Part shown: piece by piece, positions 1 through 6,796 of the stretch
Layout: the number at the start of each line of letters is the position of its first letter
How positions within the stretch are numbered: the stretch's first letter is position 1
IMG/VR virus record: IMGVR_UViG_2778261418_000010
Location: 1-6,796 of that record
Length of the DNA stretch: 6,796 nt
Origin: a virus
Taxonomy: Duplodnaviria; Heunggongvirae; Uroviricota; Caudoviricetes
Strand: one strand, 5' to 3'
Made by a program: the position numbers and the translations under genes
Notes under the pieces: model-generated
Database searches by the model: none
The model's input: only the letters and a program-made list of their open reading frames with translations
Told to the model about the DNA's origin: nothing

Positions 1-3000
1 CTCACAATATAGTTAAATGCGATGTTTTTGACGGTGTTTTCCGCGTTACCAGCAGCGTTAACGGTGATGGTGTGTCCGTGTGAGCCAATCGCAACGGAGT
101 GCGTATGAGCACCAATACCGACAGTATGCGCGTGTGCACCTGCACTTGCAGCAGTACCTGACACCGGGTGGGTATGCGCTCCGGCTGACGATGTGCCAGT
201 ACTCGAGCCTGCACGAGACGCACCTTTGAGGGCTTTATCGCCCTGCTCGGTATTGCCAGATGGGTAACAGGCAACCGTGTGTGTATGTGCCCCTGCAGAA
301 GCAGCCGTACCACTGACACTATGGGTGTGCGCTCCGGTGTTATTCGTGGTCTTAGTACCATAATCAAACGAACTGGTTGTTTTCGTCCCCAAATCCGTAC
401 TGGATGCACTGGCACTGTGGGCATGCGATTTAATACCGTCCTGTTCCTGAGACAATACAGCGCGACCACTGGCGGGTTTGCCCTTAATTGTCCATCCACG
501 CAGATCAGGGATCACACCAGATGGGTAAGCGGTTGCAAGTTTCGGGTAGGCAGATTTGTCAAAAGTCTGCCCCTGCATCAGGGCATAACCAGACGGAACG
601 GTATCTGATGGCCACGGGATTGGTGCGCCAACTGGATAAAACTCTGCCGGAGGATGGGCAGTAGTGTAAAGCTGCGCCCACGGCGACCAGTTGGCGTCGG
701 TTGTATCCCGTCGCGAACGAATAAATGCCGGAGCATGTGCACCGCTTGTACCACTCCACCCGATAAGCAATTCGCCCTCTCCAGCAGCATTCGCACCTCT
801 CATATGAAGCACATTGCCATAAGCAGTGGGGTAGCCATTGTTGTACGCCTCGTACATTTGAATGCCAGCAGTGCCTTGAGTAGAGCCGCTTAACGCCGTA
901 ACTCGGCCACGAGATACCAATGTATTAATGTTGATATCGCCTGAGCCATCAAACTTAACACCATTGATGTTTCTCGCTGTTTGCAACTTCGTAGCTGTTG
1001 AAGCATTACCCTTAATGCCGCCATTAACGGTAAGCGCCCCGGTTATTGTGCCTCCTGTTAATTTCAAAAAGAGCGCATCAATCCATCCAGCGAAACCCGG
1101 TTTATTGATATACAAGTTGCCATCATTGGCAAATATGCCACCACCTGGTGTTCTTAATGGCTGTGACATATCCGCCAAAGTTAACTGGCCTGACATTGAA
1201 TCACCAGCTCGATTAAAGTCCCGTCTCCAGCCTGGCGCATAATTGTCACCGTGGTTGATGTAGGTAAATTGTGCCTTGACGGTTCCGCCGTTCGTTGCGG
1301 TCGTGGGGGTGGTGATGCGAATAGTCATAGCCTCTCGAACCCCCATAACCTCAACTACAGCGCCAGAAAGTTGTATATTTCCACAACCGGTATCCGTGAT
1401 GATTTTATTGGCAGCGTAAGCCCATGAGCCTTTGCACATCCAGTATGAATGATTGAACGCCCCCTTAGACTCCAGCCACTCGATAAATTGCGCCGTCGTC
1501 CAGTTATTGCTGTCTCCTCCGATGCTGATATTGCCGCTGGCAGCTTTCGCTGCGCCAATATTTTTTACGAAGGTGTCTTTATCAGGTATATCTGCCCCGT
1601 TCTGGTTTTTCCGAAGGCGTGTTTCAGCGTTGTCGTATGCGGACTTTACCGCTTTCGGTGTTGCAGCGAGCGTCTCAGATTCGCTGCTGGTCTCACTGCT
1701 GAGCTGTACTATCCCTTTTTTCGTCGTGCTTGCATCCTCAAGCGCCACGGCAGATGCAATATCCTCTGCCCGTTTTGCAGCTGTCTCGGCGCGCGTTGCC
1801 GCGGATTCAGCCGCATTTTTGCTCTGAGCTGCCTCCGTCGCACTTCCTGCCGTCTCTGTCGCCTTCGTGGATGCCGTTGACGCACTCTCTGCCGCCGCTG
1901 ACGCCTGTCTGGTCGCCTCATCTTTTGAATCAGACGCAGATGATGCCGATGATGCCGCCGAACTGGCTGACGATGCGGCTGCCGTCTTTGAGGATTCTGC
2001 ACTGGTTTCCGACGCTTTCGCGTTCGTCTCGGATGTCTTCGCTGCGGAAGCTGACCTCGCTGCTGCCGTGGCCTGCTCAGTGGCTTCGCCAGCCTTCGTT
2101 GTGGCTGTTGAAGCGGACGATGCGGCGCTTTCTGCCGATTTCCCGGCGGCGGTGGCACTGGCGGCTGCCTCCTCTGCCTTAATGGATGCTTCACGGGCCG
2201 ATGATGCAGCTACTGTCTCAGAGCCTGCCGCAGCTGAGGCGCTCTGTTCCGCTGCCGTTTCAGAAGACTTAGCATTCGTCTCTGACGTTTTTGCCGCCTT
2301 CGCGGAATTTCCTGCCGCCGTTGCCGAGGAGGCTGCACTGCTGGCGCTTGTGGAGGCGTTCGTTTCTGATGATTTTGCCGCCTCTTTGGAGGCAGCCGCA
2401 TCTCTGGCTGAAGTGGCGGCTTCTGACGCTTTCGTCGTCGCAGTGGATGCAGAAGTGGCTGCTGATTGTTGTGACGCTGCCGCATTCGTTTCTGACGTTT
2501 TCGCGGCACCGGCACTGGTGGCCGCCGCGCTTTTTGAGGACTCTGCAGCGGCAGCACTTTTTGACGCTTCCGTGGCCTTTGTTGATGCCGTTCCTGCGCT
2601 GGAAGATGCTGACTGAGCAGACGATGCGGCCTGTTCGGCGGACGTGCTGGCTGCGCGTGCTGAGCCTGCGGCATCAGTCGCATGGGTTGCCGCCTCACTG
2701 GCAGATGTGCTGGCATCGCTGGCTGACTTCTTCGCGGCTGCCGTGTTCTGTGCCACTACGGACGCGTTACGCGCCACCTCTTCCACCATCAGTTCAAAAC
2801 GGCGCAGTGCCTCCGGACGGGCATCATCCTCCGTCATGGCACCGAGAAAATCATTCAGCGTCCCCGGCTTTGAATCCTCATACACGGTGATGGTCCCGGC
2901 ATGTGACGGCGGGAATCCTTCCACCATCAGAATAACGCTGTACTGACCGTACTCAACGTCCATGCTGTAACGCCCGGCTTCATCCGGATTTTCTGAGGCC

Positions 3001-3113
3001 AGCGTGTTCACCACGACCGTGGTACTGTTACGTTTTGCCTTCAGCTGAATGGTGCAGTTCTGTACCGGTTTCCCTGTTCCGTCTTTCAGTACACCTGAAA
3101 TCTTTACTGCCAT
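1..3113 (-). CDS. stf: Side tail fibre protein Stf, partial (1037 codons in window; last few codons and stop lie beyond position 1)
   Basis: Minus-strand frame with codons at [3k,3k+2] checked by hand for TTA/CTA/TCA on the plus strand: none from 3 to 3113. ATG at 3113-3111. Translation starts [37 protein letters not shown], continues through an Ala/Ser/Thr-rich shaft with (A/S)AKTSETNA repeats, and ends in window with GAHxH motifs and ...[23 protein letters not shown]. The N-terminus, shaft and C-terminus match lambda Stf as I recall it. Absent from the ORF track only because no stop falls inside the window. Confidence 0.9.
63..345 (-). repeat. His-rich G-(A/S)-H-x-H motif repeats in the Stf C-terminal tip domain (coding)
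   Basis: Hand translation gives GAHTHS, GAHTHT, GAHTHP, GAHAHT, GAHTHS and GSHGHT within about 95 residues. Corresponding DNA repeats of gcacacac/gcgcatac type are visible on the plus strand. Confidence 0.5.
2016..2502 (-). repeat. Degenerate in-frame repeats encoding (A/S)AKTSETNA(K/A)(A/S)S in the Stf shaft
   Basis: Four copies of K-(T/S)-S-E-T-N-A in the hand translation, at about 2016-2040, 2274-2292, 2358-2376 and 2484-2502. Plus-strand DNA shows the recurring motif attcgt(c/t)tctgacgtttt at about 2273-2297 and 2482-2506, and gttcgtctcggatgtcttcgc at about 2019-2040. Confidence 0.5.
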
Positions 3114-3115
3114 AT

Positions 3116-3122
3116 TCACCCC
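3116..3122 (-). promoter_or_regulatory. Putative Shine-Dalgarno for stf (minus-strand GGGGTGA)
   Basis: Minus-strand sequence GGGGTGAAT immediately precedes the stf ATG at 3113. The spacing is short, so the exact SD core is uncertain. Confidence 0.35.
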
Positions 3123-3124
3123 AC

Positions 3125-3151
3125 AAAAAAGCCCGCCTGAACCGGCGGGCT
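3125..3151 (-). terminator. Rho-independent terminator downstream of lom, directly upstream of stf
   Basis: Plus strand 3131-3137 gcccgcc and 3144-3150 ggcgggc form a perfect 7-bp GC-rich stem (8 bp with 3130/3151) around a 6-nt loop. Plus-strand A6 at 3125-3130 gives a U6 tract right after the hairpin on the minus-strand transcript. The plus-strand side has no U-tract, so it is oriented for minus-strand transcription. Confidence 0.7.
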
Positions 3152-3177
3152 GTCATAACACTGTGTTACCTGGCTAA

Positions 3178-3777
3178 TCAGAATTTATAACCGACACCCA
3201 CGATGAAACCGTCAGTGCGCCAGTCACCACTGCCGGAGCCTTCATAAGCAATATCAATGGCCACGGATTCGGTCGGGTTAAACTGCACGCCTGCCCCCCA
3301 CGCCAGAGACGTGTTGCTGTGGCGACTGTCATCACTTCCGGTCAGCACATCGTGCGTTTTCCCCTTGTTGTCAGTTACGCGGAGATAATCCCCGGAGAAA
3401 GTCGAAACACGGCTGTAAGCCACACCCGCCATCGCATATGTGCTGAACCATTCATTCACGCGTACAGACGGCCCCGCCATCACGCTGAACCAGCGGTTAC
3501 GAACGGAATCTTCATGCCAGCGGGTATCGCTGTAATGCGTTTTTTGCTCATCTTCGGCGTTGGCATAACTGAATGACGTCACCATCCCAAGCGTGTCCGT
3601 AAATTCATAACGGTATTTCACGTTAATACCATTCAGATCATCACCGCCTGGCATTTTCGTATGAGCATGAATATATCCTGCGCTTAATGTGCTATGGTGT
3701 TCTGCTGCACTCACTGTCGTACCCGATACGGTCAGGAATACTGCTGCGGACAAAAGAATTGCACATACTTTACGCAT
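3178..3777 (-). CDS. lom: Outer membrane protein Lom (Ail/Lom/OmpX-family beta-barrel), 199 aa
   Basis: ORF track 3178..3777. N-terminal Sec signal peptide MRKVCAILLSAAVFLTVSGTTVSA with an A-x-A-type cleavage site. C-terminal ...GFIVGVGYKF ends in Phe, as is typical of outer-membrane beta-barrels. Strong similarity to lambda Lom as I recall it (GINVKYRYEFTDTLG, RWHEDSVRNRWFSVMAGPSVRVNEWFS, NTSLAWGAGVQFNPTESVAIDIAYEGSGSGDWRTDGF). Position between J and stf matches lambda gene order. Confidence 0.95.
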   Translation of the reverse strand: MRKVCAILLSAAVFLTVSGTTVSAAEHHSTLSAGYIHAHTKMPGGDDLNGINVKYRYEFTDTLGMVTSFSYANAEDEQKTHYSDTRWHEDSVRNRWFSVMAGPSVRVNEWFSTYAMAGVAYSRVSTFSGDYLRVTDNKGKTHDVLTGSDDSRHSNTSLAWGAGVQFNPTESVAIDIAYEGSGSGDWRTDGFIVGVGYKF

Positions 3778-3782
3778 AATTA

Positions 3783-3788
3783 CCTCTC
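3783..3788 (-). promoter_or_regulatory. Shine-Dalgarno for lom (minus-strand GAGAGG)
   Basis: Minus-strand GAGAGGTAATT precedes the ATG at 3777-3775; GAGAGG sits 5 nt upstream of the start. Confidence 0.5.
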
Positions 3789-3801
3789 ACTTTTCTGCAA
3801 T

Positions 3802-3825
3802 AAAAAAGGCGCCATTTCTGGCGCC
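3802..3825 (-). terminator. Rho-independent terminator between J and lom (tJ-like)
   Basis: Plus strand 3808-3813 ggcgcc and 3820-3825 ggcgcc form a 6-bp all-GC stem around a 6-nt loop (atttct). Plus-strand A6 at 3802-3807 gives minus-strand RNA GGCGCCAGAAAUGGCGCC-UUUUUUAUU. Lies 20 nt after the J stop codon (3845-3847). Confidence 0.7.
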
Positions 3826-3844
3826 CGGTTTGGGTTTTAAACAT

Positions 3845-6796
3845 TCAGCTGATACTGATACCAGCTGTGGATTTTTTCATAATGACCACAAGCAAATCGC
3901 TGATAGTCGCTGAAGGATAATAATTCCCGTTTGACGCAGAAACTGAAAACTCAAGAGTTATTCCTCCAGAACCGGCTGGCATATCCATGATGCCTGTGTA
4001 AATGGCTGTAACATCGTTGGTCGATTTGTCATAAATTACAGAACCATTCTTTTTTACAACAAGACGACAGGATGAATAATATTCACTGTTTGTGGATGCC
4101 TGCCGGTGCTTCGCCCCACGAAACGCAACAGCAGGAATGACAATTTGTCTGTCATATTTTTGATCATCATCTATCCTCACAGTAATCGTACCTGACGGCC
4201 ACGGTTTAAATTCTGATTCGCGCGGATCATGTGGAAAAGCCTTTCCCACCGCTTTGACAATATCGCCCTCAATCTGACTGGCAGACAGTTTTCCTTTTAT
4301 CAGACAGTTCTCATTAATCGTGACATTGTTGAGCGTCCCGGCGTTCGCATTCACACTGCCACTGATATCCGCATTTTTAGCAGTCAGCTTTCCGTCAGGT
4401 GTCAGGGAGAATGCCGGAGGATTACCACCACTGGTAATCGTGGGAGCAATAAGGAACTTGATCAGCGCCTCATTAATAAACGTCTGTCCGCCCTGTGTGA
4501 CCAGTGCAGGAGTGGTGTTACCATTCGCCGGGTTAATAAATGCCACCCGGTCTGCAGCCAGAAGCACCTGACTCTGCATGCCGTCCTGGGTATTCTCAAT
4601 ACCGGCACCGATACCCGCAATATAAAGGCGTCCATCCTTCATCTGTTGCAGCTTCACAGCCCACATACTGTTCAGGTTATTACTGGTGTCAACCTGAACC
4701 TTCTGTATCTGCTGGATTGCTGCGCTCTGGTCTTTCAGTGTCTTGTTAACGGTCTCGGTGATTTCATTGCTGACATTCGTAATGGATGTCCTGATTTCAG
4801 CCAGATCCGGGGCAAGCTGACCGTTATCAATTTGTGTCCACAGCTCCTGGGCCAGATGTGTTTTCCCTATCTCTCCTTTGAAAAAATCCAGATAGCCGGA
4901 CGCATCATTACTCGGCTGGCCAACAGCTTCCACAAATACCGATTTGCCGACGGTGTTCACACTGCGAACATAAAAATAATAATCATGGCCCGGCCTGATA
5001 TTGATACTGGCAGCTATCCAGCACTGCGCCGTACCAAGATAACGCGCGCTGGTTTCAACCTGCCTGATATCGGTAATCCGCTTTTCCGAAAACCAGAACT
5101 CAAACTGTACCGTCGGATCATAAACCGCAAGATGCGGCGTGGCGGTGATCTGAAAATAACCCGGCGTCAGCTCAATCCGCGACGGTGCTGCCGGTGCGGC
5201 AATCCGGAACGATACCGATGCCGGATCGCCCTGCTGCTCCCAGGCATTTGCCGCCCGGACTGTCAGCCTGTAGTTTCCCAGCGCCAGTTGCGTGAAGCGG
5301 TATGTGGTTTCCGTCGTCCGGGCTGTGCTGACCAGCCGCTCACTGCCGTCTTCCGCTGTCACGGTCAGACGAAGCAGGAAGCTCACGCCCTTCACCACCT
5401 TCGGCGTATCCCAGCGCGCCAGCACCTGATATTCCCCGCTGTCTGCGGTGACTTCGGCAGTCAGGTGCTGCACCGCTGGCGGCGTGACACCATTCACCGT
5501 GCCGCTCTGGTCGCCGTCAAAGTGCGCCCCGTTATCCACGATGGCTTCTTTTTCCGGTATATGCTGCACGGCGGTGATGGCATACGTGCCGTCGTCGTTC
5601 TCACGGATACTCACGCAGCGGAACAGGCGCTGGCGCAGCGTCGGCAGCTTCAGCCCCCACACGCTGTATTCAGCAACGCCGTCAGGAACCCGGCTCACTT
5701 TCACCTTCACGCCGTCGGTGACGGACTGAACCTCCACGCTGACCGGATTGCCACTTCCGTCAACCAGGCTTATCAGCGTGGTACCGGAGGATGGCAGCGT
5801 GATTTCACGGTCGAGCGTCAGCGTCCGGGTCTGGCTGTTTACCGCCAGCACGCGCCCGCCGGTGCTGATACCGGCATAGTCATCATCGCAGATTTCAATG
5901 ACATCGCCCGGTACATGGCGAAGCCCTTCGGCACCCACGCTGAAGTCCACGGTCTGCGTTTCCAGCAGTTCTGTTTTAATCAGCCACAGCCCGGCGCGAT
6001 GTGCCTGCCCCCGGCTGGTACAGCCAAAGGCATCCATCTTCGTGACGTTACGACCGTAACGGGCAATGGCCTGCGTGTCCTCCACAAGCTCTGTCGCCGT
6101 CTCCCAGCCGTTATTCGGGTCAATCCAGTTCACCTCAACGGCATTATGGCGGTCCTTCAGGGCGCTGAAGCTGTAGCGGAACGGCGCGCCATCATCCGGC
6201 ATCACCACATTACTGCGGTTATAGGTCCACACCTTATCCGAGGGTCGGTCCTGCACGAACGTCAGCGTCTGCCCGTTCCATACCGGCATACAGCGCATCG
6301 CCGAGCAGAAATCACTGAGCACATCCCACGCCTTACGCTGTGTGGTCAGGTACGCATTACAGGTGATGCGCGGCTCCGTGCCGCCAAAGCCGTCCGGCAC
6401 TGACTGGTCGCAGTACTGGCCGATGACATACAGCGCCCATTTATCGACATCCGCCGCACCAAGACGTTTTCCCATGCCGTAGCGCGGATGGGTCAGCATA
6501 TCCCACAGACACCAGGCCGGGTTGTTGCTGTATGCCGGTTTAAACGTTCCGTCCCAGATACCGCTGTATTGCCGCGTCTGCGGGTTATAATTCGACGGCA
6601 CCTGCAGAATACGCCCGCGAAGATGATAATTACGGCTCACCTGCTGGCTGCCGAACTGCTCCGAATCCACCTGCACGCCGACCAGTGCCGTGTTCGGGTA
6701 GCACTGTTTCACATCGATAATTTCGGTGTATGACGACCAGAGCGTTTTGTTCTGCAGCTGGTCTGTGGTGCTGTCCGGCGTCATCCTGCGCATCCG
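3845..6796 (-). CDS. J: Host specificity / central tail fibre (tail tip) protein J, partial (984 codons in window; N-terminal ~150 aa beyond window end)
   Basis: ORF track 3845..6793, and the same frame stays open to the window edge at 6796. Translation ([54 protein letters not shown]..., ...[47 protein letters not shown]...) matches lambda gpJ as I recall it over most of its length. Stop TGA at 3845-3847. Synteny J-lom-stf as in lambda. Confidence 0.93.

Follow-up and report, generated by a model that had tools for sequence, protein, structure and literature searches.

A perfect 13-bp palindrome between lom and its terminator in a lambda-like prophage is very probably incidental sequence within the untranslated 3' spacer of lom

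Does a perfect palindrome that lies between the stop codon of a phage gene and the terminator of that same gene have a function of its own, or is it simply part of the untranslated sequence that surrounds it? The question is raised by a stretch of DNA of 6,796 nucleotides (hereinafter, the window) from a tailed phage record (IMGVR_UViG_2778261418_000010, positions 1 to 6,796), which shows, in reverse orientation, the tail-fibre region of a lambda-like prophage. At positions 3156-3168 of its plus strand, the sequence TAACACTGTGTTA has two arms of 6 bases each, complementary at every position and separated by a single base (TAACAC-T-GTGTTA); in the sense of the lom transcript, it reads TAACACAGTGTTA. 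The original prediction had placed a perfect 13-bp palindrome here, between the lom stop and the lom terminator, and it was right on both counts, as it was in considering the 1-base centre too short for a stable RNA hairpin, since a 1-nt loop is impossible. Three options had been offered for it: a chance occurrence, a piece of the context of the terminator, or a DNA target bound by a protein dimer. The evidence favours the former two; as for the latter, the symmetry is lost among relatives without compensation and the arms show no extra conservation. In our opinion, the palindrome is very probably an incidental part of the 26-nt 3' untranslated spacer of lom, carried along by descent and recombination, with no function of its own.

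The genes that surround the palindrome are all encoded on the minus strand of the window. A long J open reading frame (6793-3845, from the list of open reading frames) is followed by lom (3178-3777), which encodes an outer-membrane beta-barrel protein of the Ail/Lom type, 199 amino acids long and matched over its full length by the Pfam family Ail_Lom (PF06316, E 5.6e-122). Further downstream, an stf-like side tail fibre gene (1-3113) starts with an ATG at 3113-3111, contains a phage_tail_N domain (PF08400, E 2.9e-73) and runs off the end of the window. The lom gene ends with a TGA codon (3180-3178) and, between this stop codon and the terminator stem, there is an untranslated spacer of 26 nt (3152-3177) with the composition UUAGCCAGG-palindrome-UGAC. 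Read on the minus strand, the palindrome starts 9 nt past the stop codon and ends 4 nt ahead of the terminator stem; half of the spacer is palindrome. It cannot be extended as a DNA symmetry, because the flanking bases (A3155 and C3169) are unpaired.

The intrinsic terminator of lom (3125-3151; AGCCCGCC-GGTTCA-GGCGGGCT plus a T-run) has an 8-bp, G+C-rich stem spanning 3151-3130 and a 6-nt loop, and the equivalent hairpin of phage mEp460 is annotated as a rho-independent terminator. Just downstream of its T-run lies GGGGTGA, the ribosome-binding region of stf. The palindrome was considered as a component of this terminator and discarded as such: it is rich in A+U, is separated from the stem by 4 nt on the upstream side, is followed by no U-run and falls outside the centroid hairpin, while it is the 3151-3125 terminator itself that combines a G+C-rich stem-loop with a U-run. 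The palindrome is, hence, adjacent context. Likewise, a small open reading frame of 42 amino acids on the minus strand (3028-3156), whose ATG overlaps the right edge of the palindrome, was set aside as a mechanical one: it lacks a Shine-Dalgarno sequence, and the start of stf falls within it in another frame.

The lom gene, its spacer and its terminator belong to an insert. Downstream of J and upstream of lom, there is another terminator-like hairpin (3799-3826, minus strand; GGGCGCC-AGAAAT-GGCGCC plus a T-run), also found in the lom-less locus L215, where the T-run of this post-J terminator joins directly to TGTGGAGTGAGTATG, the ribosome-binding region of stf. In Fels-1 and Lambda_4B5, homology to the window resumes only at the T-run. 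Comparison with lom-less relatives delimits an insert, or 'moron', of approximately 3125-3798 (minus strand), which comprises (i) a ribosome-binding site; (ii) lom; (iii) the spacer with the palindrome; and (iv) the terminator, its edges being ambiguous by a few T's. The palindrome itself was rejected as an insert boundary, because it lies inside this segment, whose edges are at the T-runs. Published work describes lom as an accessory gene expressed while the prophage is repressed, and morons as bringing along a terminator of their own (PMC7067206, PMC3594210). When the window (3778-3826) is set beside L215 (2300-2440), the lom insert is seen to start directly past the post-J T-run, and only 21 nt separate this T-run from the lom ATG. 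Such a short gap leaves no room for a promoter and, in consequence, a lysogen promoter, if used, would lie upstream, within or before the 3' end of J.

How unusual is a palindrome of this size? For perfect palindromes of this layout (arms of 6 bases, centre of 1 base), a first-order Markov model predicts 1.73 +/- 1.25 in the window and two were found, so one of them within 6.8 kb is unremarkable. When spacers of 0-3 bases are allowed between arms of 6 bases, 6 palindromes are observed versus 7.3 expected. The particular 13-mer is naturally rare (0.19 occurrences with up to two mismatches are expected per window), and the probability that any palindrome with this layout lands in this 26-nt spacer is about 2%, a figure that carries little weight because the place was chosen post hoc. 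The only other perfect palindrome of the same layout in the window, TGAATAATATTCA (4073-4085), is located within the J coding sequence; on the plus strand, antisense to J, a promoter-like match (TTTACA-16-AATAAT, 4053-4080) overlaps it.

In RNA of the lom sense, the best fold of the palindrome opens the innermost pair and yields a stem of six pairs (five Watson-Crick and one G-U) with a CAG triloop. This hairpin is weak: its predicted energy is -2.3 kcal/mol (z = -0.91) and 44 of 200 shuffled sequences fold as well. The spacer as a whole folds no better than its shuffles (z = +0.29) and, in a context of 72 nt, the centroid structure contains the terminator only. The minimum-energy fold of those 72 nt includes a long-range CACAG/UUGUG pairing around the terminator, which was set aside, with an ensemble frequency of 0.04, a z of -1.47 and a position outside the centroid. 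A scan against Rfam at E <= 10 returned sub-threshold chance matches only, the best of them being Trp_leader with 21.7 bits versus a gathering score of 41 bits.

The palindrome is not exclusive to the window. Phage lambda (NC_001416) carries an identical copy at 19595-19607, within a lom-orf401(stf) region (19586-19649) that has the same flanking genes and whose spacer, between the stop codon and the stem of the terminator, is identical to that of the window. There, the terminator differs from that of the window in the loop and one stem base only (TTCAGGC versus AACCGGT), while the two phages have different alleles for the body of lom, with about 45% amino-acid identity. Nothing is annotated at the palindrome in the lambda record, and nothing was found on it in the literature searched. 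Both phages share a mosaic block (window 2900-3255, lambda 19510-19870), around 93% identical, which begins with the last ~75 nt of lom, includes the terminator and continues into stf; upstream of it, lom diverges sharply. With a block identity of about 93%, 13 unchanged bases are to be expected (P ~0.4, as an estimate). The same 3' block is attached, in other loci (L007-L034), to lom alleles that are 39-88% identical to that of the window. Near-identical lambda sequence was also encountered in assemblies labelled as Neobacillus, Kitasatospora, Pseudomonas, Shewanella, Bradyrhizobium, Enterococcus and others (L015-L028, L032-L038), in contigs whose coverage is often ~1x and some of which are ~48.4-48.5 kb long; it looks like lambda DNA contamination.

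The lom-stf junction is common to 236 phage records and to most E. coli genomes. For the comparison of relatives, loci were gathered by means of anchors placed outside the palindrome (the terminator-side flank, the 3' end of lom and the 5' end of stf), and Lom-encoding loci from a one-genome-per-species collection were added. The palindrome is intact in about 90% of the approximately 200 related loci sampled (183 sites), an observation that is counted against an incidental nature, as weak purifying selection may escape notice among sequences so closely related. When ~190 of these loci are reduced to the 42 distinct haplotypes that they form between the lom stop and the stf start, 30 keep the palindrome and 12 have it broken by substitution, deletion or insertion. 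Substitutions affect 7 of the 12 arm positions; in one locus (L209), a deletion takes nearly all of the left arm and, in another (L246), a single nucleotide is inserted within that arm. Not one compensatory change on the opposite arm was detected for any of the six pairs across the 42 haplotypes.

Across these same haplotypes, the arms are no better conserved than the neighbouring spacer bases, with 1.62 variant cells per column in the palindrome versus 3.0 in the spacer before it and 1.0 in the spacer after it. The corresponding values are 1.6-1.75 for the arms of the terminator, 3.3 for its loop, and 1.4 from the T-run to the stf start. The difference between both elements emerges when changes are classified by their effect on pairing. 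If the palindrome is counted as a helix, 14 of its 17 changed cells are left unpaired and 3 become wobble pairs; in the terminator helix, on the contrary, 9 cells are unpaired versus 14 wobble, that is, changes mostly keep pairing as G-U. The terminator behaves as a maintained structure and the palindrome does not.

Regarding recurrence elsewhere, lambda contains a second exact copy, TAACACGGTGTTA, at 47288-47300, together with a copy with two mismatches 9 bases further on (47309-47321). Since only about 0.003 exact matches are expected in lambda, this was counted, as an unlikely coincidence, against the incidental reading. Both of these copies lie inside the coding sequence of lambdap78 (YbcV/DUF1398 family, on the other strand), and N-T-V-L is the peptide that the palindrome encodes there. 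In the homologues of Chlobot and ev099 (83% identical), the peptide is kept and the symmetry is destroyed by three synonymous third-position changes; the ybcV-like copy of Tritos is broken as well. For this reason, the copy at 47288-47300 was rejected as a site: it is a by-product of the coding sequence, and homologues lose it through synonymous changes. In PhiR26_1, the ybcV-like copy shares its central base with the lom copy. The closest relative of the window (97.1% identical, the best among 5,426 complete E. coli genomes) was scanned over a 47-kb region that represents most of the prophage, in which only the lom copy appears at up to one mismatch. In 2.02 Mb of lambdoid DNA, for which chance predicts 0.11 occurrences of the motif, 183 copies lie in the spacer and 3 in ybcV, and no copy was found outside these two contexts.

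For these two comparisons, proposed in the original prediction as ways to check the palindrome, the outcome is mixed. The search for other copies of TAACAC-N-GTGTTA produced one recurrence, in lambda, and none further in the prophage region of the relative or in the 2.02 Mb; the examination of related lom-stf regions revealed a motif that is widely present but whose symmetry is lost in 12 of 42 haplotypes. A lack of both conservation and recurrence had been named as what would speak against the palindrome and, taken literally, neither is lacking: the motif is widespread in relatives and recurs once in lambda. In any case, its presence in relatives and its single recurrence in lambda can both be explained without a function.

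A functional small RNA is known from the region downstream of lom in another lambdoid phage, and the two situations deserve comparison. The 20-nt 'microRNA-size' RNA 24B_1 is encoded 'between lom and vb_24B_43' of the Stx phage Phi24B (PMC4426718, PMC10732415), and its authors state that it is absent from lambda (PMC4426718). The likeness resides in the location: 24B_1, too, belongs to a lambdoid phage and is encoded in the interval that follows lom, which indicates that the region downstream of lom can carry a functional small RNA. But the region of 24B_1 is a 428-nt, non-homologous one, in a phage of the 933W type, and no homology to the 20-mer or to its 80-nt precursor was detected in the window. 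The 20-mer itself (TAACGTTAAGTTGACTCGGG) has no match in the window, the best alignment, with 7 mismatches, being elsewhere, at 4807; conversely, Phi24B contains no TAACAC-N-GTGTTA. A BLAST comparison of the Phi24B region with the window outside the lom coding sequence gave only a weak 19-nt match (E 0.019) between the post-lom terminator of Phi24B and the post-J terminator of the window. Ahead of its lom terminator, in a similar relative position, Phi24B has GGTAACCGTTTAC, an imperfect palindrome, which constitutes the only resemblance. The 24B_1 locus was discarded as a counterpart of the palindrome, given the lack of homology between the regions and the fact that neither sequence, 20-mer or palindrome, occurs in the DNA of the other. 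In Phi24B (HM208303, locus L260, 177-205), there is a canonical terminator-like hairpin, ACCCGCTGTGATGGCGGGT, followed by a T-run, about 24 nt past the lom stop and on the lom strand; the paper on 24B_1 reports that ARNold gave no rho-independent terminator in that region.

Several functional explanations can be weighed against these data. The palindrome might be a DNA operator at which a dimeric protein, be it a host regulator or a phage protein of the repressor type, binds and acts as a roadblock or modulates read-through from lom into stf. Its dyad symmetry is indeed perfect, lambda holds one more exact copy, and its arms, TAACAC and GTGTTA, correspond to the half-site hexamers of the lambda operator OR2 (TAACACCGTGCGTGTTG), whose outer hexamers they match at 6/6 and 5/6 positions. 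The spacing, however, is wrong, and the likeness to lambda operators was rejected on that ground: CI/Cro operators are 17 bp long with a gap of 5 bp between hexamers, whereas the palindrome has 13 bp and a gap of 1 bp, which places the half-site centres 7 bp apart, not 11, a distance that, judging from known operator geometry, a CI or Cro dimer would not span. With up to three mismatches, the pattern TAWCAC-N5-GTGWTA finds no 17-mer overlapping 3156-3168. Elsewhere in the window, that same pattern has 12 matches (e.g., 956-972 and 4351-4367) versus 5.5 expected, a number reached by 1 of 200 shuffles; all of them are weak and located in coding sequence, and they probably reflect a compositional effect. 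To our knowledge, no E. coli regulator consensus fits TAACAC-N-GTGTTA in orientation and spacing (DeoR, Zur, NadR, ArcA, FabR, GntR-type, CRP and LexA were considered). Besides, the palindrome is unchanged across many immunity types (Stx phages, mEp460, cdtI, lambda), its second lambda copy is a by-product of coding sequence that is missing from homologues, neither the 2 Mb of phage DNA nor the prophage of the relative shows a recurrence like that of a regulon, and its arms vary as much as their flanks, with symmetry absent from 12 of 42 haplotypes. An operator is, hence, highly unlikely. It is also unlikely, though somewhat less so, that the palindrome acts as RNA, as a small hairpin in the lom 3' untranslated region (UAACA-CAG-UGUUA, G-U closed) that works with the terminator, for example by hindering 3' exonucleases a second time, by signalling processing or by binding an RNA chaperone. 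It does belong to the transcribed strand, with 4 nt between it and the downstream stem of the terminator, it has a predicted fold of six pairs and a 3-nt loop, and it is intact in most relatives. But that fold is no better than those of shuffled sequences and is missing from the 72-nt centroid; 14 of the 17 changed cells break pairing with none compensated, next to a terminator helix whose changes are mostly wobbles; natural variants exist without nearly all of one arm (L209) or with an insertion in it (L246); and neither an Rfam family nor, in the literature searched, a small RNA at this untranslated region was found.

Finally, the palindrome could be a recombination-related site, that is, it could mark a scar or the edge of the lom insertion, or favour illegitimate recombination as a hot spot. 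One junction points in this direction: in locus L059 (9180-9260) and in two complete E. coli genomes (NZ_CP147059.1 and NZ_AP043606.1), bor, ybcV-like and ybcW-like genes from the lambda right end are joined directly to the lom-stf spacer, the 3' flank of ybcW (lambdap79-like) being linked to it inside the left arm with a 4-nt TAAC microhomology. A junction of this type implies the loss of everything from cos through lom. However, it is a single rare junction (2 of 5,426 genomes), and a 4-nt microhomology suffices for it, with no need for the palindrome. The boundaries of the lom insert, for their part, are at terminator T-runs, the right-hand one some 30 nt away from the palindrome, and the mosaic breakpoint between lom alleles falls about 75 nt upstream of the stop codon, within the gene. 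A recombination site is thus extremely improbable. Apart from its symmetry, the palindrome lends no positive support to any of these three rival readings. There is also very little chance, in our estimation, that the palindrome is under weak selection, be it as an RNA hairpin that acts with the terminator on the stability of the lom mRNA or gives rise to a small RNA of the 3' untranslated region, or as a DNA site to which a dimeric protein binds with low affinity, tuning the read-through into stf. If true, weak selection would explain why ~90% of the copies are intact, and the second lambda copy in ybcV would be more than a coincidence.

If incidental, the palindrome would be transcribed within the 3' end of the lom mRNA and within the late tail-gene transcript that reads through the terminator, and in those transcripts it would form, at most, a marginal hairpin of six pairs with a 3-nt loop. 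Its presence in lambda and in most lambdoid relatives would derive from common descent, and the highly similar block made up of the lom 3' end, the terminator and the stf 5' end would have been spread by recombination, a process for which selection on symmetry need not be invoked. We infer both this spread and the absence of function from the observed anatomy, frequency, folding and variation of the locus.

For the biology of lambdoid phages, a functional palindrome would add a small control element to the expression of lom, a lysogenic-conversion gene, or of the side tail fibre. As it is, a candidate is cleared: a perfect palindrome, present also in the well-studied phage lambda, that gives no sign of a regulatory role. 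The case also illustrates that near-universal presence among closely related mosaic phages does not amount to evidence of selection, and that descent and constraint can be told apart by comparing a motif with neighbouring neutral positions and, as here, with the helix of the adjacent terminator.
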